64,000 nt of DNA, from contig JAQTYZ010000004.1 of NCBI GenBank assembly GCA_028688055.1, positions 33,021 through 97,020 of the forward strand, in the 5' to 3' direction. A program made the position numbers and the translations under genes. The notes under the pieces were generated by a model. The model did no database searches. It had not been told where the DNA came from and saw only the letters and a list, made by a program, of their open reading frames with translations. Positions 13,094-33,636 of this stretch are shown in pieces (position 1 is the stretch's first letter; each line of letters opens with the position of its first letter). The stretch is from Patescibacteria group bacterium (GTDB taxonomy: Bacteria > Patescibacteriota > Patescibacteriia > Buchananbacterales > UBA6539).

Positions 13094-16000
13094 TCACGGC
13101 AGCGCGGGGTAGTTTCGCACCTCCAGGTAATCAAGGTTGATAGGTGTTTGGTTACCCCACTCATACCAACTACCGATCTCGTGCGCTCCGGCGGTCAAAT
13201 TGACCACCAGACTTGCTTCACCCCAGACATCCCATTGGTCTGGTCCGAGACTTGGCAGTGTCAACGTGTCGACCAACTGTCCGTCGACATAGATGTTGCG
13301 TGTCGCGTCGTCACTAGTGCCGTTGGCGTACCGGAATACCAGTTGGTATTGGCCGGCTTCAGGAATGGCGAGGGTAAAGTCCGCGCCACGGTTAGGGCTG
13401 TCAAAACCGTCAGCGAATCCGGTACCGGAGTAACCCCAGTGACCGGTGTTGATGCCAAGGCCCGTCAGGGTCGCCGCTTCGGCTTCAAGATGTTCAATCG
13501 GTGTCGCGACTTCAGTGACTTCCAGCGCGTCAAGGTTGATCGCCCCACCGTTCATCCAGTCTTGGACTAAGCCAATGGTGTGAGCGCCAGCGGTTAAATT
13601 CACGAGCACTTCGCTGTTGCCCCAGACGTCCCAGCTACTGCCAAGACCGAGGAAGGTTTGACGACTAAAATAGTCACAGTCAAGATAGACATTGCGGGTG
13701 GCCGGACTGGGGTCACCCCGGCTGTAGCGGAAACGTAAACGATAGGTGGCGTTCATTGGAACAGTGACGGCGAAATCAACGGCGTCACCAACACTTTCAT
13801 ATTGGTCGACAAAACCACTGCCAACATAATCAACGTGGTCAGTATCAACTGCGGTGTTGGTTAGTGAGGCCGTTTCGGCTTCCAAGCGTTGCCACCAATT
13901 GGGCAGTTGGGTCACTTCGAGGTAATCAAGATTGATCGCCCCGCTGTCAGACCACTCCGACGACAATTCAATCGTGTGAACACCGGCCGTCAGTGACCCT
14001 AATTGTGACGCGGTGCTCCAATCATCCCAAGTGCCAAGACTGGGAAATACCAGCGAGCTAAAATACTCGCCGTCAATCCAGATATGGCGAACCGCCGCGT
14101 CTGGGTAACCATTGGCGTAGCCGAAATCAAAGCGGTAGGTTCCGGCCAGCGGGACGTTAACCGTGAAACTGACAACATCACCAAAGCTTTCGAATTCATC
14201 GACAAAACCAATACCGCTGAAACCAGCGTGATCGGTGTCAACCGCGACGTTAGTCAATGTCGCCGCTTCGGCTTCAGACCGCTGGTGGTACATCAGCGTT
14301 GGATTGTTGAGCGTCAGCAGACAATGGCTAACGTCATTGTCCGTTCTGACATTTTGGACTGCATTGTCCGTATTGACCACGAGCCTTAAGTCGTACTGGC
14401 CGCTGGGAATTGAGCTGAAATCCAGCGTCGTTTCCCAGACTTCCCGTACCGCCAGTTGCGGTGCGAGTAATGACGCCACTAATGTGTCGTCGAGATAGAC
14501 TTCGTAGCGAAACGACGCGCAAGTGCTGTTGGCTTCGTTGCTCAGCGTCAGCGGCACCGCTGACGCGTCCACGTTCATGGTTGCCGGCAAATCCGACGCC
14601 GGATCAGTGAAGCGCACCACTTGCAGGTAGTCTTGGAAACTTCGATTGATACCTAGTAGCCCCAAGCTTGGCATGTCGCCATCAGCTTCAAACCAAACAC
14701 TGACGGCGACACTGGACGACAATAGGTAATCACTTCCGGTATGGAAGGTAACCGTGCAGAGAAACACTGTTGAGTAAGGCGCGATGTACGAAGGCAGTTG
14801 GTAGGTATTGGAATCCAACGTTGCCCAACTGCTGTTCACGGCAATACCGGAGTGACTACCAACAAAGTCAGTAATCGGATCGGCCGTATTGTTGAAGATG
14901 TAGTACGTCCGGGTGTAGGTTTGGTTTGGCAACAGCACAACAGGGCTATCGTAAGTAACGATGCTGACGTTCTGTCCCAAGGTCAGTGCCGCGCTACCCG
15001 CAGCGAGCACTACGCCGGTGGCTGAATACGCCGACACGTGAACCGTGACGGTTTGGCCGTTGCTCAGGTTGTAAATCGTGCACTGGGCATTCTGGAAATT
15101 GTTGTAGAAACTGCCGTTGACGCTGACGCGGTAGTAGGCCGCGCCGGCAATCGTTAACCAACTGGCATCCAAAGACAAAGTGCGGGGCTGCAAGACAACC
15201 TGCAAATTTTGCAGGGCGGGAGCGACAGGCAAGGTAACGGTCACGGTCGACGAGGTCGCCAAAACATTAGCGTTACCATCAACGGCCTCCAGGTGATAGC
15301 TATGCGAGGAGCTGGGAGCCAGGTTGCTCACCGTGAAGTCGAGCGTGGCTGGATTCAAGGTGCCGAGGTACTGGTTGTCTTGATAGACGCGATAGTACGA
15401 CGTACCAGTGACCGCACTGCCAGACAGGTAGACGGTGGTTGATGAAGTCTCGTTGGCGTAGAGGTTGAGACTGGTACCGTTGCCGGGGATGGTGGCATAG
15501 TGAAAACCTGCACTTAATGTTCCACGAACATCACTGTAGCCATAGACGGTGTCATAGACTAGATAGCCGTTGGCCATCTTTTGGACTGCCAACTGATGAC
15601 CGTTATAGTCATCCGTCGCATATTTTTCCTCCTCAACGGGACCGCCAAGTGTTCCCGAAGACATTTGGATATTTGGCCCACCGTAGGCTCTGTAGAAATC
15701 CCAGAGTTGACCATGAATGACGAAGGCTTTACTCTGGCTATGCTGAGAATCATACACTATTGCACACCCATTCAGAGAATCACCAGAGAAATTCTGAATC
15801 CAGCAACTACCCCATTGATGCGCCGCGACAGGACTAGCGTTGTCTGATACTGGCTCACCGACGAGTGAAGCTTTACCATTATCGTTAAAACAACTCACGA
15901 TAACAGGAGAGAGATCAGGACGCCAACCATTAACGGTTTCTCCAGGGCAAACAGAGTTTGACCATCCAGAGATTATGATAGAGTTGTTAGCGGTTAGATA

Positions 16001-16828
16001 CATCACCGCATGGCGAAAATCTTGACGCCAACCACTTCCATCTGAATAGAGAGGCGTGACAGCAAAGCCATATGACGACTCTCCGCCGCCGTTGGCCCAG
16101 GCTTGTCTTAAAGCTGTGTCAACTGGGTAGCGTCCACAAATTATGGGGCTGATGGTTAACACTCGGTCTAATCCGACCGAGGAAGGTGTATAAATAACAC
16201 CTTGGCCTGAGGTAGTGCCATTCCAGGTGGTATTGATGTTACCAAATGGATCATTGACTACTATTCTATAGTCATCAGTATAGCCAATGATTACCAGGTA
16301 ATGGCCATAGGTACTGGCTAAGTGACCAATTAATGGTCTACCGGCATCAATCTCTGATTTGATGGTAGACATCAGGCTGGAATAGATCCAAGCGCTACCT
16401 GTCGTTAACCCATGACGCTGGAGATATTCTACCGATGCTGAAGCATCAGCTTTCCAATCACCATCAATGGGCTTAACGATATAGCCATGCGCACCATACA
16501 CTACATGAGGATTGGTGTCATTTGAAGGATTCCAATCCCTAGCCCAGCTAGTCGTGTAGTCTTCACCGCTGACATCAGTACATCCCGAATATGCGTTGTA
16601 GACATACCATCCTTTGTAGCTGGACGGGTTGTCCGGTTGTAGGCCGTAGTAGCTCGTAATCATCACCGCACTTGTCGGCGCACACGCATTGTAACCAAGA
16701 AAGTCACCCTGATTCATATCCTGAACTTGATGGATGTAGGGAACATCCAATGTTACTGCCGCCGAGACTGAGCGACACACACCGACCAACATCAAAGACA
16801 CTAACATGACCATCAACTTAGCTTTCAT
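13094..16828 (-). CDS. Large secreted multidomain protein: signal peptide, C39-like (papain-like) peptidase domain, Ig/FN3-like beta region, then three tandem CBM6/CBM35-like (galactose-binding-like) repeats of about 130 aa.
   Basis: 1244 aa. AGGAG RBS 8 nt upstream. The N-terminus has a signal peptide, then YIHQVQDMNQGDFLGYNACAPTSAVM (Cys nucleophile context) and a later His/Asp. The C-terminal repeats carry LEAEAATLTNxAVDTDHxGxxGxGFVDxFESxGDxVxFxVxVP ... YRxxFRYANG ... NLTAGxHTIxL ... INLDYLEV. GC content is far above the flanks. Confidence 0.7.
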   Translation of the reverse strand: MKAKLMVMLVSLMLVGVCRSVSAAVTLDVPYIHQVQDMNQGDFLGYNACAPTSAVMITSYYGLQPDNPSSYKGWYVYNAYSGCTDVSGEDYTTSWARDWNPSNDTNPHVVYGAHGYIVKPIDGDWKADASASVEYLQRHGLTTGSAWIYSSLMSTIKSEIDAGRPLIGHLASTYGHYLVIIGYTDDYRIVVNDPFGNINTTWNGTTSGQGVIYTPSSVGLDRVLTISPIICGRYPVDTALRQAWANGGGESSYGFAVTPLYSDGSGWRQDFRHAVMYLTANNSIIISGWSNSVCPGETVNGWRPDLSPVIVSCFNDNGKASLVGEPVSDNASPVAAHQWGSCWIQNFSGDSLNGCAIVYDSQHSQSKAFVIHGQLWDFYRAYGGPNIQMSSGTLGGPVEEEKYATDDYNGHQLAVQKMANGYLVYDTVYGYSDVRGTLSAGFHYATIPGNGTSLNLYANETSSTTVYLSGSAVTGTSYYRVYQDNQYLGTLNPATLDFTVSNLAPSSSHSYHLEAVDGNANVLATSSTVTVTLPVAPALQNLQVVLQPRTLSLDASWLTIAGAAYYRVSVNGSFYNNFQNAQCTIYNLSNGQTVTVHVSAYSATGVVLAAGSAALTLGQNVSIVTYDSPVVLLPNQTYTRTYYIFNNTADPITDFVGSHSGIAVNSSWATLDSNTYQLPSYIAPYSTVFLCTVTFHTGSDYLLSSSVAVSVWFEADGDMPSLGLLGINRSFQDYLQVVRFTDPASDLPATMNVDASAVPLTLSNEANSTCASFRYEVYLDDTLVASLLAPQLAVREVWETTLDFSSIPSGQYDLRLVVNTDNAVQNVRTDNDVSHCLLTLNNPTLMYHQRSEAEAATLTNVAVDTDHAGFSGIGFVDEFESFGDVVSFTVNVPLAGTYRFDFGYANGYPDAAVRHIWIDGEYFSSLVFPSLGTWDDWSTASQLGSLTAGVHTIELSSEWSDSGAINLDYLEVTQLPNWWQRLEAETASLTNTAVDTDHVDYVGSGFVDQYESVGDAVDFAVTVPMNATYRLRFRYSRGDPSPATRNVYLDCDYFSRQTFLGLGSSWDVWGNSEVLVNLTAGAHTIGLVQDWMNGGAINLDALEVTEVATPIEHLEAEAATLTGLGINTGHWGYSGTGFADGFDSPNRGADFTLAIPEAGQYQLVFRYANGTSDDATRNIYVDGQLVDTLTLPSLGPDQWDVWGEASLVVNLTAGAHEIGSWYEWGNQTPINLDYLEVRNYPALP
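15322..15620. repeat. Copy 1 of a roughly 300-bp, about 94%-identical duplicated segment, lying inside the large secreted-protein gene.
   Basis: Direct alignment with 17840-18138 shows identical runs of 69 and 85 bp. Flanking homology continues at lower identity. Confidence 0.85.
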
Positions 16829-16982
16829 TGTACCAACTCCTTGTTGTTTGCCCTAAGACACAATCTTCACTTTTCAAAGAACTGACGTATAGGTTCATAC
16901 AGGAACCTTGATTGCCGCTATACAAAAAACATAGCATCGCACCAAACAAGGTGACTGTCGCGCTATGTTTTTTATTTATGTT

Positions 16983-17702
16983 TTAATTTATGTATTCTAT
17001 AGTTTGTAGAAAATTATTTTCAAGATTCTCTTTTCCATTAACACTTATATAATCATAATAGATATAATCGGAATCCGTCACATAAGGAGGTGCCTCAACT
17101 TTTTTGGAATAAACTAAATAATACATCTTTCCAATAAAGACACCAGCATGCTGACACATTTGACATGGACCAGACTGATCTGTAGTTTTGCAAGGCTGAC
17201 AAGGGCCATATTGGATAGCCAACTGATATGCATCAATATTATTATTCTGACCAACCAAAACTTTTGTGCGACTAATTAATTTGGTAGGTTCTCCAAAATC
17301 TTGTTTCCAGCCATACTTCACAATATAATCCTCAAGATTATCAGCGACCGGAAAAGCATCCCTAATGCTGCCTAAATGCATATATAGCGGCGTTGATGAC
17401 TTATCGTTATAACTTATATCAATGCTCGAACGGTCAGTTATAACATAAAGTTTATCATCCTTATCCTCAAACCTAAACTTAATTCCCCAATCTTTATTAG
17501 TATACGTTTTCCAACCATCCGCATCTTTAGTCAAAGTTATGTTTTCTTCCTTTAAGTCTGCAGTACTACTTGAAGTGTTAACATTTTGATTCACCGACTC
17601 ATTGGTATTAATCTTAACTGGTGGTTTTTTGTAGCATCCCGAAAGAATCGTGCTAAGGGCAAGGACGGTGAGTGTAAAAATTGTTAGTTTAAATTTGGAC
17701 AT
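16983..17702 (-). CDS. Lipoprotein, paralog A of three.
   Basis: 239 aa. Signal peptide with an LSGC lipobox, and a WKTYTNKDWGIKFRFEDK motif shared with the 19079-19723 and 22116-22769 products. Confidence 0.7.
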   Translation of the reverse strand: MSKFKLTIFTLTVLALSTILSGCYKKPPVKINTNESVNQNVNTSSSTADLKEENITLTKDADGWKTYTNKDWGIKFRFEDKDDKLYVITDRSSIDISYNDKSSTPLYMHLGSIRDAFPVADNLEDYIVKYGWKQDFGEPTKLISRTKVLVGQNNNIDAYQLAIQYGPCQPCKTTDQSGPCQMCQHAGVFIGKMYYLVYSKKVEAPPYVTDSDYIYYDYISVNGKENLENNFLQTIEYIN

Positions 17703-17732
17703 AATTTTGTAAAAAATAAAGCGCTTGAAGCG

Positions 17733-18917
17733 CTATGTTGGTAAAATGATGTTGTAGTAATTATCATCAGTAAATATATAGTGTTTAGGATAAAGTGTCA
17801 ACGGCCACGAGATAGTAGGTGGGGTTGAGCTTGGAGCTAGGTTGCTCACCGTGAAGTCGAGCGTGGCTGGATTCAAGGTACCGAGATACTGGTTGTCCTG
17901 ATAGACGCGATAGTACGACGTACCAGTGACTGCACTACCGGACAAGTAGACAGTGGTTGGTGATTGGGCCGTGGCGTAGAGGTTGAGACTGGTACCGTTG
18001 CCGGGGATGGTGGCATAGTGAAAACCTGCACTTAATGTTCCACGAGCATCGCTGTAGCCATAGACGGTGTCATAGACTAGATAGCCGTTGGCCATCTTTT
18101 GGACTGCCAACTGATGACCGTTATAGTCATCCGTCGCGTAGCGTTCTTGGTCGACTGGACCACCTAAATAACCAAGTACTGAAGTGTTGGCCTTAATGAA
18201 GTACCACAGTTGATTGTGGACTACGAACGCCTGGTTCGGGCTGTTAACAGTGTCATACAAAATGGCACATTCACCCAACGTGCCACCACTGAACATCTGG
18301 AACAGACAATTTGACACATTGGGCCAAACACTGACACGCCCGTCTGTGAAAGGCACCTCTAAATTAGCAACGGTGCATCCGATTTTTATGTTGTCACCGT
18401 TAGTGTGATAACAACACAAAAATTCCTTACAGTTGCTTCCATCCTGATTTCTGCCAACCATTAAACGGTAGAAATAAACTTGGTGATTAGGCTTTGTAGA
18501 GACGTAGGCATATGGGTCCCAATTATGATCCCTCACTTTAAAATCCTGGGGATCACTATAGTTGGAATCTACTACTTCATAGTAGCTTCCACTAATACCT
18601 GCGTAGACAGCGGAATGATAGATGTAGTAATCATCCCACTCATAGTTAATAGTTGGATTACTGGTCTGGATGATGTCACCAGACTGCAGAACCGATACTT
18701 CTGTAAAGCCTGCATCTAGATAGCAGTCATGATATCCAGCTCCCAGGGTACCCCCAATCTGACCAATAACAAACTGCACAAACTCCTTACAGGACCAGCC
18801 GTATTGACCAACATACGTCTTTGCCTTGTCAGCAATGTTGATGTTGGTCTGGGCAAACGCTTGACCAATACACATCATTATGACACAAACAAAAAAAACA
18901 ATCTGCTTATTTTTCAT
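17733..18917 (-). CDS. Secreted CHAP/NlpC-P60-like cysteine peptidase or amidase domain protein. Its C-terminal beta region is shared with the 13094-16828 protein.
   Basis: Start moved to MKNKQIVFF (AAGGAAGG RBS). Signal peptide, then a GWSCKEFVQ Cys and YHSAVY His (CHAP-like). A C-terminal roughly 130 aa is near-identical to an internal segment of the large protein. Confidence 0.6.
   Translation of the reverse strand: MKNKQIVFFVCVIMMCIGQAFAQTNINIADKAKTYVGQYGWSCKEFVQFVIGQIGGTLGAGYHDCYLDAGFTEVSVLQSGDIIQTSNPTINYEWDDYYIYHSAVYAGISGSYYEVVDSNYSDPQDFKVRDHNWDPYAYVSTKPNHQVYFYRLMVGRNQDGSNCKEFLCCYHTNGDNIKIGCTVANLEVPFTDGRVSVWPNVSNCLFQMFSGGTLGECAILYDTVNSPNQAFVVHNQLWYFIKANTSVLGYLGGPVDQERYATDDYNGHQLAVQKMANGYLVYDTVYGYSDARGTLSAGFHYATIPGNGTSLNLYATAQSPTTVYLSGSAVTGTSYYRVYQDNQYLGTLNPATLDFTVSNLAPSSTPPTISWPLTLYPKHYIFTDDNYYNIILPT
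17840..18138. repeat. Copy 2 of the duplicated segment, lying inside the CHAP-like gene.
   Basis: See copy 1. Confidence 0.85.
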
Positions 18918-19078
18918 CACACACCTTCCTTTCAAGTTGTCAAAGTTCATCATCTCCCTCTTTTTGCCACAAGGCATCAAGAGAAAAGCCCTCAACCTAG
19001 AGGACTTCTCAAAATAATAGATAGCACTATTACTTAGAGAAACACTCTAAGAAATGCGCTATGTTGATTATAAAAAAA

Positions 19079-19723
19079 TTATTTTACTAGCTGAAAGGAT
19101 TTAACTAAGTCATTATATACTTCTAAGTCTTTATCTAACTGATCAACATCAGTATTATCATACCTTCGGTGGAATCTAAGAACAACATAGATATTTTTAT
19201 TTGGAACATTAACGGAAGTATCTACTATTCTGATCCATATATTTGGGATAGTACTACCCTCAGGATCTTTGTAAGGTAGATCTCCGGATATTTTAACAAA
19301 ATTATTTCCGTTAGCAACAACTTCTTTTTCTACCACGTTGGTGATAATAGACATTTGTGATTCATTCAATGTATTTGGGCTATCTCCAATAGATACAGAA
19401 ATTTTTGCGTCTGGCAAATTAACATTACACGCAACTTTTGTATCAGATAAAATTAATAGGTTATCATAAGTATTTTGATCACAGCTATCTAGATACCACT
19501 GGAGTGGATACTTAAACTCAAACCCATACTCATCGTTTCTGTAAGTTTTCCAATCTGATGTATTGATATCGGCAGTGGTTGTTGCACTATTAGTATTTTG
19601 ATCAGCATTCACATTCTGCCCTTCAACATTGCTCAGGGTGACTGGTTTTTTATAACACCCCGAAACCACCGTGCTGACAGCAAGGACTATGAGGGTAAAA
19701 ATTGTTAGTTTAAGCTTGGTCAT
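19079..19723 (-). CDS. Lipoprotein, paralog B.
   Basis: 214 aa. VSGC lipobox, DWKTYRNDEYGFEFKYPLQW motif. Confidence 0.7.
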   Translation of the reverse strand: MTKLKLTIFTLIVLAVSTVVSGCYKKPVTLSNVEGQNVNADQNTNSATTTADINTSDWKTYRNDEYGFEFKYPLQWYLDSCDQNTYDNLLILSDTKVACNVNLPDAKISVSIGDSPNTLNESQMSIITNVVEKEVVANGNNFVKISGDLPYKDPEGSTIPNIWIRIVDTSVNVPNKNIYVVLRFHRRYDNTDVDQLDKDLEVYNDLVKSFQLVK

Positions 19724-19890
19724 ATTTTTGTAAAAAATAAAGCGCTCTAGGCGCTATGTCATTAAAACGATGTTGTAGTAATTATCATCAGTAAATATAT
19801 AGCGTGTGATCTAAAAAGTCAACGGCCACGAGATAGTAGGTGTGGGTTGAGCTGGGAGCTCGGTTGCTCACCATGAAATTGAGCGTGGTC
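19724..19890. repeat. Truncated third copy of the duplicated unit (the 3' end of a secreted-enzyme gene plus the intergenic terminator region).
   Basis: 19724-19817 matches 17703-17810 (ttttgtaaaaaataaagcgc...gatgttgtagtaattatcatcagtaaatatatag). 19818-19890 matches 17811-17880, the 3' end of the CHAP-like gene and the start of the identical block. Homology then breaks off abruptly. Confidence 0.7.
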
Positions 19891-19916
19891 GGCTAAATTC
19901 TTTGGTTTATAAATTT

Positions 19917-22115: not shown

Positions 22116-22769
22116 TTAATTAATAAATCTAAAGGAATCTATTAACCCAAAATAAACTTTATCAATTTCAGCATTAATTTCCTTCGAGCCAAGATTTACT
22201 TTAGATATTGAATATTGTTTATAATTCTTAAAAATATCAGTTTCAACCCCTAAATAATCAGAACTTTGGACTGCATGGTCGCTTCTTTCAATTGATACTT
22301 CTTTGACAACACCCCCTCTATTGTCTTTTATATTGATTAAGTCACTCCTCCAATTATTAAAGGAAAAATCACGACTAATACTAATAACATTTATACTTAT
22401 CAAATAAGTAATGGATCCCTCAAGAGCATAAGAATTTCGACTATCTCTAAATTCAACAATGCCAGAAGAGCTTATTTTATATTCCCAACTTTTAGGATAT
22501 TTAAATTCAAACCCATACTGATCATTTCGGTAAGTCTTCCAACTTGGAGTATCAATCTCAGCCGTGGTAGTGGAAGTATCGGCATTAACATTTTCATTCA
22601 GATTAACATTCTGATTCTCATTCTGGATTCCCGTCGGCACGGGAATGACAGCGTTGGTATTAGTATTTGTATTGTCATTCTGAACTTGTTTCAGAATCTG
22701 ACACCCCGAAACCACCGTGCTGACAGCAAGGACTATGAGGGTAAAAATTGTTAGTTTAAGCTTGGACAT
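22116..22769 (-). CDS. Lipoprotein, paralog C.
   Basis: 217 aa. VSGC lipobox, SWKTYRNDQYGFEFKYPKSWEY motif. Confidence 0.7.
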   Translation of the reverse strand: MSKLKLTIFTLIVLAVSTVVSGCQILKQVQNDNTNTNTNAVIPVPTGIQNENQNVNLNENVNADTSTTTAEIDTPSWKTYRNDQYGFEFKYPKSWEYKISSSGIVEFRDSRNSYALEGSITYLISINVISISRDFSFNNWRSDLINIKDNRGGVVKEVSIERSDHAVQSSDYLGVETDIFKNYKQYSISKVNLGSKEINAEIDKVYFGLIDSFRFIN

Positions 22770-22964
22770 ATTTCATCATTTCTCTGATTATTCTAGCATT
22801 AAAGTCCTATTATCGGGAGCCCAGGCTCAATCCACCTTCATCAAGTACTCTTTGCGGGCTCCAGGCTCAACATAGCGCGAAAAGCTCAAGGACCCGCAAA
22901 GAACATTTGATAACATTGGCGGACAAACACCGCGCGAAAGCTCAAAGCTCCCGATAATAACCCT

Positions 22965-24992: not shown

Positions 24993-25085
24993 AAAATTGC
25001 GCCGTCAGTGTTAATTGCGCCGTCACAATTATTTTACCGCTTTTAAAGGTAAAAAACAAACCCCGCCGGATATTCCATTGGGGTC

Positions 25086-25535
25086 TTAAGTCGGTTGGCC
25101 CGACTGGCGTTCGGCTTGGTCCAAAGTTCTGCTTGCCAAAGCCATTGGCATTGGCTCAGGTTTCACAAAACGCAGCTGCTCCTCAAAAAATGAGCCGAGC
25201 CGATAAAGCGAAATGATTGGCGCAATCTGGGCCCTTGATTGAAAGATCAACTGCCACTCGGCGTTGCGGCGAATGGCAATGGCGGCCAGCTCAATTAGCA
25301 CAGCAATAACATCACTGCCAAAACCTTCGCCGTCCGCGGTTCTCAGCGCCACGAAATCGACTTCCAGTCTTTGCCAGTGATTAGACTGGCGAATTTTTTT
25401 CATCGCCCAAAAGACTCGAGCGACATTGCCACACATATTCCAAACGCCCGATAGACGCAAAGAATAAGTTTTAGTTGAGCGTCGATAAACTAGCGACGCT
25501 CGGACTTTATGGCCTTTTTTGAAAAGTCCAAACAT
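25086..25535 (-). CDS. Hypothetical protein, GC-rich.
   Basis: Start set at MFGLFKKGHK with GGAGG 8 nt upstream. A terminator hairpin lies downstream at 25040-25075. Confidence 0.4.
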   Translation of the reverse strand: MFGLFKKGHKVRASLVYRRSTKTYSLRLSGVWNMCGNVARVFWAMKKIRQSNHWQRLEVDFVALRTADGEGFGSDVIAVLIELAAIAIRRNAEWQLIFQSRAQIAPIISLYRLGSFFEEQLRFVKPEPMPMALASRTLDQAERQSGQPT

Positions 25536-25695
25536 CGCGCTACCCTCCATCGGTTGTCAGACACTTGGTTAAGTATAACTAAAAAATTAAAATAAAAAAA
25601 AGAGCTACAAGGGGGATGGCTTGTAACTCGAGAGGGTTAAGTTGCCCGTAAGGCAACAGAGAGCAGAACAACGCTACCCTGCGAAAGCCGATGGG

Positions 25696-25866
25696 CTACC
25701 AGTTCGCGAGAGCCGCGTTTGCGTTCGTCAGATTGACGTCGTTGCCGCCGTTTTCTTTGGCGTTCGGGTTGGCGCGTCCGCGTGCCAGATTCGTCGGATT
25801 GCCGTTCGTCGTGTTTGCCGGATTGCCTTCCTGATGGTGCGCCTTGACGGGGCCGGACTGCGTGAT
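25696..25866 (-). CDS. Small (57 aa) low-complexity Asn/Gly/Pro/Ala-rich protein. Hypothetical.
   Basis: GGAGG 8 nt upstream of ATG. Product is MITQSGPVKAHHQEGNPANTTNGNPTNLARGRANPNAKENGGNDVNLTNANAALANW. A hairpin-plus-T-run terminator lies about 70 nt downstream on the minus strand (25588-25625). Confidence 0.3.
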   Translation of the reverse strand: MTQSGPVKAHHQEGNPANTTNGNPTNLARGRANPNAKENGGNDVNLTNANAALANW

Positions 25867-26497
25867 CATAGGATGTTCCTCCAAAACGTTGGACGTTGTT
25901 GTTTTCCGCTGCCCGCAACGGGCAATCGGAGATACTACTCGAGACTAGCCGTGCTCAGGGCTTCCTTGGTGTTGTCACAATTGCGACATTACTTTAGAAG
26001 CCATTGGCCGCAAATCCCCGAAACGCCGTAGCGTTTCCCTTATTGGCCTTTGACAGCCCTCCGTTTTGTCACTGAAAGCGACAAACACTTTGGTTGCCTA
26101 AGCAGCTGCTATAAAAAAAATCCTAACAAATTAATAAAAAAAATGCAAGCGTTTCTCAACAAAATAACGTCCTCCCCGCACAGCGCTACGCTCGTGCGTG
26201 GTTTTCCTGAGCTCCGCTATTCGCTAGCCCCACGGCGTCATACTGAACTTGCTTTGGAATTAGAATTTTATGCCGCCCCTTCTTTTTTTGTCATGCCGAA
26301 TGACGCTTGCTCCGCCGTGGCGGTGGGTTCGGTATCTCTAGCGATCCTTTGACCTCCGCTAAGGCGGGGCAAACAAACTTAGGATAACAGATAAAACAAG
26401 ATGACAGACAAAAAAATGTCATTCCCGCATCCGCTCGGGGTTTCCTTTTGGGCAAGAAAAAGCCCAGCGCGAGCTGAACCTTCATTAACGACAAAAA

Positions 26498-30136: not shown

Positions 30137-30140
30137 TTTT

Positions 30141-30216
30141 GGGCCTGTAGCTCAGTTGGTAGAGCGCTACATTCGCATTGTAGAGGTCAGGGGTTCGACT
30201 CCCCTCAGGTCCACCA
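30141..30216 (+). tRNA. tRNA-Ala (anticodon CGC).
   Basis: Acceptor GGGCCTG with G3:U70, anticodon loop TTCGCAT, T-loop TTCGACT. CCA is encoded. Confidence 0.85.
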
Positions 30217-30223
30217 GTTAATT

Positions 30224-30250
30224 AGCGTCGTTTTGCGACGCTTTTTTTTA
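30224..30250 (+). terminator. Rho-independent terminator after the Arg-Ala tRNA pair.
   Basis: AGCGTCG ttttg CGACGCT followed by TTTTTTTT. Confidence 0.7.
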
Positions 30251-30344
30251 TTTAATTTTAGAGAAATTTTAAAATAAACCAAAAAAATTATAAACATATT
30301 TCAGCTAGCTTGACAAATTTAGCTAAATGTTATAGTATTCATAC

Positions 30345-30507: not shown

Positions 30508-30569
30508 ACTTTGACAGTATTTTTTTTTCATTTTATAATAAGTCGGTAATTTATTTATCTTGCTTTTTT

Positions 30570-30645
30570 GGGCCTGTAGCTCAGCTGGTAGAGCGCTTCC
30601 ATGGCATGGAAGAGGCCAGGAGTCCGAGTCTCCTCAGGTCCACCA
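30570..30645 (+). tRNA. tRNA-Ala (anticodon GGC).
   Basis: Acceptor GGGCCTG with G3:U70, anticodon loop ATGGCAT, CCA encoded. The T-loop TCCGAGT is atypical. Confidence 0.8.
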
Positions 30646-31357
30646 AAAAATTGTTCCACGTGGAACTTTTTTTTATTTATTTTTTCTGAGGTTTGTCTAA
30701 CTTTAAGCTAAGATTTGAAGTTTATATAATTTTATAGTTGTGGGCTATAAATAATTAACGCCAGAGAATTATTTATCTGCTTAATATAGTGAATCTTTTT
30801 TCTAGCGACCACTATATAACCAATAATAAATAAAGACCACTGATTTCTGTACTTTGACAACCTTCGCCATTAAAATTAGCTATTGCAGAAGCTTAGCTCT
30901 ATTTTTCAATTTTTGAAGTATTATTATTTAAATATCACAATTTATTAAGATCCTCTAAAATATTATGGCCGCTAAAGACTTTTAATTAATTAGCAGCAAT
31001 ACCTTTTAACAATAAATATTTTTGCTTTCATCAAAAAATTATAAAAACAAAATTGTCCCTTAAGCTAAATGTTCCACGTGGAACATTTTTTTGGAACAAC
31101 AAAATATATGCACGTTAAAAAATTATTTTACTTATTGCAACCGTAATTACCAAAAACTCCTAGGCGTAAATTAAATTTTTTAAAATATCCAAAAAAATTA
31201 TATTACAAATATTATTTAGCCATTTATTTTTTACGCTTCAATTTGTTTCACGCGGAACATTTACAAAAACGAAGCTAGTGCTGGTGATCAATAAAGGTGT
31301 TTATTAATAGCTAAGCTGGATTTAGGCCCGATCATTAAATACTACCCCCCAGTATAA

Positions 31358-32418: not shown

Positions 32419-33636
32419 ATGAAAACCAAAAAAATTATTGTTCTGGCCGCGATCGCGGCGATTATTTTTCCAAATTTATCAGCGCGGGCGACCGAAAATT
32501 TAGCCGAGCGATTAGCTGGTAAAATTTTACTGCAAGTCGAAAGCTATGGCCGCGCTTGGTATATCAATCCGACAACCAAAGAGCGCTACTATTTGCAAGA
32601 CGGTAACGCCGCTTATGACTTAATGCGTCAGTTAAGTTTAGGTATCAGCAATAAAGACTTGGCCAATATTCCCATCAAGCGCGGCGCTAAAAGCGACGCC
32701 AAATTGGTTAATCGCTTAAAAGGCAAAATTTTACTACAAGTCGAAAGCCATGGGGAAGCGTGGTATGTCAACCCCGTTGACGGGCTGCGCTATTACCTAA
32801 AAGACGGCAACGCCGCTTATGACTTAATGAAAAAATTTGCCATTGGTATTAAAGATAAAGACTTGCGCACCATTCCGATGAATAAAACCCAGCGCGTGAT
32901 GGATACGACTTTCGATGATGTTGCCCACGTGTCGTTTGACGGCACTAATTATGCAGATCAATATCACGCCGACCAAATCTTAGCACCGGCCTCAATGACT
33001 AAGTTGATGACCGCCCTGGTGTTACTTGACCAACAGCTTGATTGGAATCAGATTGTTACCATTATGCCAGAAGACATTGCTTATCCAAAAATCTTTGTCG
33101 GCGATGATACCACCAGTGAAATTGATATTGCCATTGGCGATCAAGTTAGTATCGGGGACTTGTGGGTGGCGATGTTAGTATCATCGTCAAATCAAGCGGC
33201 CGCGGCTCTAACGCGGGTAACCGGCTTGGCCAAACAAGATTTTGTCGCCTTGATGAATCAAAAAGCCGAAAACCTTGGACTAAAAAAAACCTATTTCTAT
33301 GATGTCGCCGGCCTTGATTCACACGACGTAACGACGCCCAAGGAAATGGCCGTCATCGCTTATCATGCTTTTAATATTCCTAAAATCGCGGACACTTCAA
33401 TTATCCGCAGTTACACCCTCAATGTTGTTGACGCCAAAGGCAGCGCTAAGGCCGTTAAGGCGACTAACCGCAACTACAGCTTATTAGCATTTAATCCGCA
33501 AGGAGCAAAAACCGGCTATCTGGTTGAAGCCAAATGCACGGTGGCAGTTAAAATCAACAATGTTATCTATGTGGTGATGCACGCCAATCACGTCGCTAAC
33601 CGTAACAATATCCTCAAAAAAATCATCACCGACTGA
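32419..33636 (+). CDS. D-alanyl-D-alanine carboxypeptidase (S11 family) with an N-terminal tandem 68-aa duplicated domain.
   Basis: Signal peptide, two repeats of GKILLQVESxGxAWYxNP..ExRYYLxDGNAAYDLM ... KDL, then an ASMTK (SxxK) motif. Confidence 0.8.
   Translation: MKTKKIIVLAAIAAIIFPNLSARATENLAERLAGKILLQVESYGRAWYINPTTKERYYLQDGNAAYDLMRQLSLGISNKDLANIPIKRGAKSDAKLVNRLKGKILLQVESHGEAWYVNPVDGLRYYLKDGNAAYDLMKKFAIGIKDKDLRTIPMNKTQRVMDTTFDDVAHVSFDGTNYADQYHADQILAPASMTKLMTALVLLDQQLDWNQIVTIMPEDIAYPKIFVGDDTTSEIDIAIGDQVSIGDLWVAMLVSSSNQAAAALTRVTGLAKQDFVALMNQKAENLGLKKTYFYDVAGLDSHDVTTPKEMAVIAYHAFNIPKIADTSIIRSYTLNVVDAKGSAKAVKATNRNYSLLAFNPQGAKTGYLVEAKCTVAVKINNVIYVVMHANHVANRNNILKKIITD
32518..32925 (+). repeat. 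Intragenic tandem duplication, 2 x 204 bp (68 codons), in the carboxypeptidase gene.
   Basis: 32518-32721 and 32722-32925 align at about 75% nucleotide identity. Confidence 0.8.

Follow-up and report, generated by a model that had tools for sequence, protein, structure and literature searches.

How did two neighbouring genes whose predicted products carry different catalytic heads come to share an almost identical stretch in their interior? The question arises from a 64,000-nucleotide stretch of DNA of an uncultured Patescibacteria bacterium (positions 33,021 to 97,020 of contig JAQTYZ010000004.1, assembly GCA_028688055.1), which we refer to as the window. The two genes, here called A and B, lie in tandem on the same strand with the copies of the shared tract 2.5 kb apart, and in the deposited annotation both proteins are encoded by a single contig of 150,580 bp from a Patescibacteria metagenome-assembled genome (MAG). 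Our analysis indicates that the tract is probably the product of repeated intragenomic (ectopic) gene conversion between A and B within a tandem hydrolase-lipoprotein array. The genes, the tract and its diverged 5′ flank are as follows, in window coordinates.

13094-16828, minus strand: gene A, 1244 amino acids, MDD2807603.1, annotated as a CBM35 domain-containing protein (Patescibacteria group bacterium).
17733-18917, minus strand: gene B, PHW95_03745, 394 amino acids from its annotated MKNKQ start; the open frame reaches 18995.
15308-15619, minus strand: converted tract in gene A, codons 404-507 (recent sub-tract 15455-15619, unconverted patch 15440-15454, older sub-tract 15308-15439).
17826-18137, minus strand: converted tract in gene B, codons 287-390 of the open reading frame (recent sub-tract 17973-18137, patch 17958-17972, older sub-tract 17826-17957).
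15620-15901, minus strand: 5′ flank in gene A, codons 310-403, covering LGFP-like repeat 1 and the first half of repeat 2 including its LGGP motif.
18138-18422, minus strand: 5′ flank in gene B, codons 192-286 of the open reading frame, the diverged counterpart of 15620-15901 in gene A.

A preliminary description of this DNA had reported that 15322-15620 and 17840-18138 align with about 18 mismatches and contain identical runs of 69 and 85 bp. An ungapped alignment of the two segments gave 19 mismatches in 299 bp (93.6% identity), and the longest identical runs were 86 bp (15534-15619) and 74 bp (15454-15527). Comparison of the window with itself by blastn recovered the same repeat and extended it to 15279-15646 and 17798-18164, with 88.9% identity over 368 bp. 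Both copies of the tract are on the minus strand and in frame. Protein homology of lower identity continues beyond the near-identical block, as had also been described, and the peptides CWIQNFSGDSLNGCAIVYD and CLFQMFSGGTLGECAILYD that illustrated it are both present; the homology between the two proteins spans residues 310-508 of A and 192-391 of B. The tract codes for the second (beta-sheet) half of LGFP-like repeat 2, a linker and FN3 strands A-E, and its 5′ breakpoint lies directly past the LGGP motif of the second LGFP repeat. The exchange that had been proposed for a shared module was therefore found for only part of that module, half of one LGFP-like repeat plus five FN3 strands.

The 5′ border of the tract is abrupt. 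Third-codon-position identity between A and B was about 40% over gene A codons 292-396 and stepped up to 95-100% from about codon 404. When a maximum chi-square test was applied to the 582 aligned nucleotides of the homologous region, the statistic reached 126 at gene A codon 404, whereas 500 column permutations gave no value above 18.4. Identical runs in this alignment were up to 86 long, compared with at most 43 in 5000 permutations. Among codons that specify the same amino acid in both genes, 18 of 33 differed synonymously to the left of the breakpoint and 13 of 99 to the right (Fisher p = 5e-6). The 5′ flanks of A and B have 40% amino acid identity, a saturated synonymous divergence (dS) and a nonsynonymous divergence (dN) of 0.35. 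Because the synonymous sites of the tract have been homogenised, protein conservation or purifying selection alone is excluded.

The tract itself is not uniform. In the recent sub-tract, which corresponds to the LGFP half, we found 2 differences in 165 nt (dS 0.027), whereas the older sub-tract, which corresponds to the FN3 part, contained 11 differences in 132 nt by script count, all of them synonymous (dS 0.43, dN 0). The difference in divergence between the sub-tracts is significant (Fisher p = 0.0017, from a hand count of 2 in 165 versus 12 in 132). Between them lies the linker patch, which reads NETSS in one protein and TAQSP in the other and, with 8 differences in 15 nt, is as diverged as the flanks. 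Two sub-tract ages and an unconverted patch therefore call for at least two events of different age, and of an exchange that had been taken as recent throughout, only about 165 bp is truly recent. A dN of 0 against a dS of 0.43 in the older sub-tract points to purifying selection on both copies, despite the incomplete FN3 domain of gene B. Likewise, the intact frames and the exclusively synonymous differences of the older sub-tract indicate real evolution under selection rather than sequencing error.

The 3′ border is resolved by a decayed third copy, remnant C, which shares its truncated end with gene B.

19724-19892, minus strand: remnant C, a headless third copy in which the final ~70 bp of the FN3 fragment are combined with an AT-rich tail and a terminator; immediately downstream of it is lipoprotein gene L2.
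17821-17822, minus strand: site of a 1-nt deletion in gene B relative to gene A and remnant C, which frameshifts FN3 strand F (three-way alignments).
17720-17734, minus strand: terminator-like hairpin AGCGCTTCAAGCGCT plus a T run, overlapping the gene B stop codon; a twin lies at 19741-19755 after remnant C.

With remnant C as third taxon, the informative sites at the 3′ border (gene A ~15308) supported the pair A-B at 6 positions and the pair B-C at 2 inside the tract, compared with 1 and 16, respectively, just outside it (inside versus outside, Fisher p = 0.001). Downstream of the tract, B thus groups with remnant C and not with A. Remnant C resembles the 3′ end of gene B together with the start of lipoprotein gene L1 (17622-17866 versus 19643-19888, 85% by blastn), and the truncation junction, GCCGTTGAC followed by AT-rich sequence, is common to gene B and remnant C. 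Strand F reads APSSTHTYYLVAVD in remnant C, which has kept the original frame, and changes to APSSTPPTISWPLT and onwards in gene B, where the frameshifted tail runs to a TAG that overlaps the terminator hairpin. The best sigma-70-like promoter match in this region, TTGACA-17-TATATT (11/12), is located at 17773-17801 on the minus strand and is repeated at 19794-19822. Its start coincides with the junction at which the FN3 domain of gene B is truncated, and both this match and its repeat at remnant C are upstream of the terminator hairpin and the lipoprotein gene; either a promoter followed by a leader or mere chance could account for it.

Members of the protein family from other Patescibacteria allowed the history of the tract to be compared with that of its flank. 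Over the 5′ flank (residues 310-403 of A), A was 40% identical to B, 49% identical to the family member P0018 and 45% identical to P0003, while B was 52% identical to P0018 and 47-48% identical to P0019 and P0020. Over the tract, A and B were 98-100% identical and every other protein reached at most 59%. The phylogenies of tract and flank are thus incongruent. Since the outgroups are closer in the flank and A and B are closest to each other in the tract, A and B carry separate old module lineages, and the tract was exchanged within this genome. Together with the third-position step, the chi-square test and the diverged homologous flanks, this result bears out the gene conversion or recombinational exchange suggested in the preliminary description.

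From these data we propose the following course of events. Genes A and B carry different predicted cysteine peptidase heads in front of the same kind of module, in two old lineages that have diverged from each other. Non-reciprocal homologous recombination would then have overwritten an internal stretch of 312 bp at least twice. An older event would account for the FN3 part (dS about 0.43, no amino acid change since) and a recent event for the LGFP half (dS about 0.03), with the 15-bp linker patch between them left unconverted. The molecular mechanism may have been the formation of a RecA-type heteroduplex followed by repair. More generally, the array of hydrolase and lipoprotein cassettes, including the decayed third copy, would evolve by duplication, truncation and conversion.

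The domain assignments of the two proteins differ in their heads. The gene A product contains a signal peptide, a Peptidase_C39_2 domain at residues 27-194 (PF13529; 44.8 bits versus a cutoff of 24), LGFP-like repeats at residues ~236-445, an FN3 domain at residues ~452-540, a second FN3-like domain, a CARDB domain at residues 753-833 and three CBM35 domains at residues 850-1244. Successive CBM35 modules are also visible as an internal DNA repeat of gene A (13665-13882 versus 14058-14275, 67% identity). The gene B product consists of a signal peptide, a head with an NlpC/P60-CHAP fold, two LGFP-like repeats, an FN3 domain truncated after strand E and the frameshifted tail. Its head had been called CHAP-like. 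No Pfam CHAP (PF05257) match was found in gene B even at E <= 10, and homologs of this head also fell under the CHAP threshold (P0005, 20.5 bits versus a cutoff of 26). Searches of the PDB with gene B gave marginal matches by sequence (an FN3 monobody, E = 0.21) and only the LytN CHAP domain by profile (E = 1.1). In the structural model of gene B, the predicted local distance difference test (pLDDT) score was 80.5, with most of the head above 90 and the tail below 50. Foldseek matched the modelled head to the CHAP endolysins Ly7917 and PlyGRCS and to the NlpC/P60 enzymes RipA, RipB and MAP1204 with probabilities of 0.97-1.0, although the E-values were marginal (3e-3 to 5e-2, none below 1e-3), and the best target-normalised TM-score was 0.61. 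In addition, Cys43 and His101 of the head were near-invariant across 72 homologs. The model thus assigns the gene B head to the NlpC/P60-CHAP fold with a conserved Cys/His pair, which retains the fold, though not a Pfam match, from the earlier designation. The two catalytic heads had also been called unrelated; they do belong to different families, C39-like and NlpC/P60-CHAP, both of which are by convention placed in the papain-like superfamily. Both products are predicted cysteine peptidases, and their hydrolase activity is inferred.

The module that A and B share combines LGFP-type repeats with an FN3 domain. When residues 210-560 of gene A were scanned alone, the LGFP Pfam model (PF08310) scored 26.5 bits against a cutoff of 22, with the best match at residues 254-281; full-length gene A scored only 18.1 bits, and gene B had no match to this model. 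An AlphaFold model of residues 225-545 of gene A had pLDDT values above 90 over residues 294-444 and 454-534. The modelled repeats have a helix and a small antiparallel sheet, as in the LGFP domain of Corynebacterium glutamicum mycoloyltransferase A (PS1/MytA; PDB 6swz and 6sx4, PF08310), and the FN3 part is a predicted seven-strand beta sandwich of the kind defined by FN3 structures or the Pfam fn3 model. The module shares only about 13% identity with the MytA domain, however, has the motif LGGP/FGxP, and has longer repeats with conserved Cys residues; there are roughly three such repeats, and Pfam detects just one of them. The LGFP repeats of MytA were reported to interact with peptidoglycan-arabinogalactan (PMC11299179). 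By analogy with MytA, and given the fusion of the module to three kinds of wall hydrolase head, the putative function of the module is binding of a cell wall polymer; its target could be the wall of the bacterium itself or that of a host. We found the LGFP-like plus FN3 tail on CHAP heads (P0018, P0025 and P0047), on M23 heads (P0019, P0013 and P0105) and on C39-like heads (P0020, P0022, P0028, P0002 and P0003) in other proteins, which come from Patescibacteria or Buchananbacteria where a source is named. Because the module is joined to CHAP, M23 and C39 heads in other genomes, domain shuffling at the level of the family is real, as is conversion within this genome.

Genes A and B belong to an array in which hydrolase genes are interspersed with lipoprotein genes.

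16983-17702, minus strand: lipoprotein L1, 239 amino acids, with a signal peptide ending in LSGC, between gene B and gene A.
19079-19723, minus strand: lipoprotein L2, 214 amino acids, PsbP_2-like, upstream of gene B.
22116-22769, minus strand: lipoprotein L3, 217 amino acids, PsbP_2-like, the third of the lipoprotein series.

In the direction of the minus strand, L3 (22769-22116) is followed further on by remnant C, L2 (19723-19079), gene B, L1 (17702-16983) and gene A. The three PsbP_2-like lipoproteins have a signal peptide and their first roughly 75-100 residues in common, and the remainder is barely alignable. The signal peptide regions of L2 and L3 match at 72 of 73 nt (19655-19727 versus 22701-22773), and the N-terminal coding region of L2 is about 80% identical to that of L1 (17622-17706). 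The lipoprotein signal peptide regions thus provide, within this array, another example of local conversion or concerted evolution.

A syntenic locus of a distant relative, L001 (ENA ERZ4903137, contig k141_605882, 4796-13580), was independently assembled in another study. It encodes P0022, which falls in one 90%-identity cluster with a Candidatus Buchananbacteria protein, and shares with the window a CMAS methyltransferase, an asparaginase (53% identity) and a 200-residue protein (66% identity). Its array consists of a lipoprotein, an M23 hydrolase, a lipoprotein, a C39 hydrolase, a lipoprotein and an M23-like hydrolase. The three hydrolase paralogs share mosaic blocks with 87.8% identity over 565 bp, 95.2% over 188 bp and 80.8% over 364 bp, and the nucleotide identity of such blocks ranges from 81 to 98%. 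The blocks start at the linker/FN3 boundary, and the adjoining flanks have 20-40% third-position identity. The M23 gene of 543 amino acids has lost about 58 residues of a CARDB-like domain and has the same tail as the C39 gene, and one hydrolase gene of this locus also has a truncated domain and an AT-rich tail. Because L001 shows the same mosaic, concerted, patchy evolution of the tail in this array is both recurrent and old.

The hydrolase genes also differ from their surroundings in composition. Gene A has a GC content of 50-57%, with GC at third codon positions (GC3) of up to 0.77, whereas neighbouring genes have 30-36% and the window about 40%. The hydrolase genes (13094-16828 and 17733-18995) thus form GC-rich islands, and the same contrast between hydrolase and lipoprotein genes was found in L001. 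Near codon 444 of gene A, GC3 rises from about 0.42 to about 0.63, a change point with a chi-square of 38.8 versus a permutation maximum of 14.3. The contrast may reflect a mosaic or horizontal origin, or GC-biased gene conversion.

This composition is one of the reasons for considering that the tract arose in a single step, in which a segment of one gene, or of a horizontally acquired foreign homolog, was pasted into the other by recombination, as a segmental duplication or domain replacement with no recurrent conversion of resident paralogs. The GC-rich islands would fit such an origin, as would the change point near codon 444, which suggests that gene A may itself be a mosaic, and the 5′ flank, which is now too diverged for homologous initiation. 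However, diverged homologous sequence lies on both sides of the tract in the same register, as for replacement of a resident homolog, and a single step leaves the two age classes and the unconverted patch unexplained. Moreover, the GC-rich mosaic pattern of the distant relative marks it as a long-standing property of the array rather than a single recent import. We therefore regard a one-step origin as unlikely. Still less likely is an artefact of assembly or binning, in which the contig would be chimeric, a repeat collapsed or the paralogs made alike by polishing. A MAG contig with compositionally atypical hydrolase genes invites this suspicion, but the 19 mismatches between the copies, which in the older sub-tract are synonymous without exception, show that the repeat has not been collapsed; the longest identical run, at 86 bp, is below common read lengths; the frames are intact and the flanks on both sides are colinear and homologous but diverged; both proteins are annotated on the same contig; and the independently assembled L001 shows the same type of block.

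Could the block simply be the most conserved part of an old duplicated domain, with no exchange at all? The peptide YATDDxxGHQLxVQxxANGxLVYDTV is indeed well conserved across the family. Conservation of protein leaves synonymous sites free, however, and the recent sub-tract is nearly devoid of synonymous change beside a saturated flank, with 86 bp identical, whereas other family members have at most 59% amino acid identity to the tract. Pure conservation is effectively refuted by these synonymous-site data, and we give it hardly any weight. Diversity-generating retroelements (DGRs) are common in Patescibacteria, and a pair of repeats that are 100-300 bp long, nearly identical and located close to the 3′ part of a surface protein gene, in a genome of the Candidate Phyla Radiation (CPR), could recall the template/variable repeat pair of such an element. 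The mismatches between A and B are mostly third-position transitions, occur in both directions and are not confined to the adenines of one copy; in addition, both copies are coding and in frame, and homology continues into both flanks. The mismatch spectrum refutes a DGR pair, the probability of which is next to nil.

Several points also weigh against repeated conversion between A and B, the explanation that we favour. The 5′ flank today has about 50-55% nucleotide identity, which is too diverged to start homologous recombination. Either the tract was once longer or the event used internal identity alone. The source sequence is a MAG. B and remnant C were 84% identical within the tract and 82% identical beyond it, which is uninformative as to donor and recipient. 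Finally, no relative of the same species or genus that could polarise the change was found, either among genome contigs (searched with the module protein and a degenerate DNA pattern) or among metagenome contigs (searched with gene B and a degenerate pattern). Gene B is more AT-rich than gene A at 9 of the 11 synonymous differences at which the copies differ in GC (p = 0.065).

Conversion between paralogous genes of bacteria is a familiar process, and the event itself is unsurprising. Its interest lies in providing a clean, statistically well-supported case in Patescibacteria (CPR), where recombination dynamics appear little documented; our literature searches on gene conversion in Patescibacteria and on LGFP in Patescibacteria or CPR found nothing relevant. 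The LGFP-type plus FN3 module appears as a promiscuous tail on three wall-hydrolase-like families in this phylum, which predicts targeting to cell walls, possibly to that of a host. Because the same mosaic is present in the syntenic array of a distant relative, concerted evolution of the locus is long-standing, and it may be a route by which reduced genomes diversify secreted enzymes. The 86-bp identical run, which is in direct orientation, in frame and 2.5 kb from its partner, could support unequal crossover. Such a crossover would remove L1 together with the C39 head, so that the CHAP-fold head of gene B would be joined to the gene A tail of FN3, CARDB and CBM35 domains, and it is a plausible route for the shuffling of heads and tails across the family.

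A more speculative possibility, to which we assign a low probability, starts from the synteny of the array across distant Patescibacteria, in which each GC-rich gene for a secreted hydrolase is followed by a gene for a PsbP_2-like lipoprotein. The array may be a system of cassettes whose homogenised LGFP/FN3 tail and homogenised lipoprotein signal peptide region serve as recombination handles, and the lipoproteins, which are hypervariable downstream of their N-termini, may act as cognate inhibitor or immunity partners. If so, the handles would repeatedly join C39-like, CHAP-like and M23 heads to common wall-targeting tails, leaving truncated orphan ends such as remnant C. The result would be a diversification like that of effectors and immunity proteins, resembling polymorphic toxin loci except that the N-terminal end is the variable part, and the system would serve to attack or remodel host cell walls in episymbiotic bacteria.

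Other features of the window were recorded apart from the array. A region at ~25000-26400 has about 50% GC, contains only implausible, overlapping, arginine-rich open reading frames on both strands and gave no Rfam match; the region may represent foreign DNA in decay or a non-coding element not described so far. A tRNA-Ala region is duplicated (30137-30259 versus 30566-30684, anticodons CGC and GGC, 77% identity) and adjoins tRNA-Arg(CCT), and a tandem direct repeat of about 160 bp with 70% identity occurs at 32518-32678 and 32722-32882. The Rfam scan of the window found tRNAs only.

Two kinds of known system resemble this locus. Peptidoglycan hydrolases and phage endolysins combine CHAP, M23 and amidase domains with interchangeable cell wall-binding domains. 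As in those enzymes, a head is joined here to a binding tail, the same tail occurs on CHAP, M23 and C39-like heads, and the recombination points lie near domain borders. In contrast to them, the tail is an LGFP-type repeat rather than an SH3b, LysM or choline-binding repeat, A and B are tandem paralogs on the chromosome and no phage context was seen, and in this genome the border of the conversion falls within an LGFP repeat instead of at a linker. Ectopic conversion of surface protein genes is known from babA/babB and other hop genes of Helicobacter pylori and from opa and pilE/pilS of Neisseria, and slpA and slpB of Lactobacillus acidophilus have an identical wall-binding C-terminal third in common. 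Unlike such paralogs, A and B carry different catalytic families rather than variants of one adhesin, they come from an uncultured Patescibacteria bacterium, and we saw no sign of inversion, phase variation or silent cassettes that would serve programmed variation. Like those paralogs, however, A and B have a near-identical internal tract with sharp borders in diverged surroundings, their synonymous sites have been homogenised, the anchoring or binding module is conserved while the part that determines specificity differs, and the tracts are repeated and patchy.

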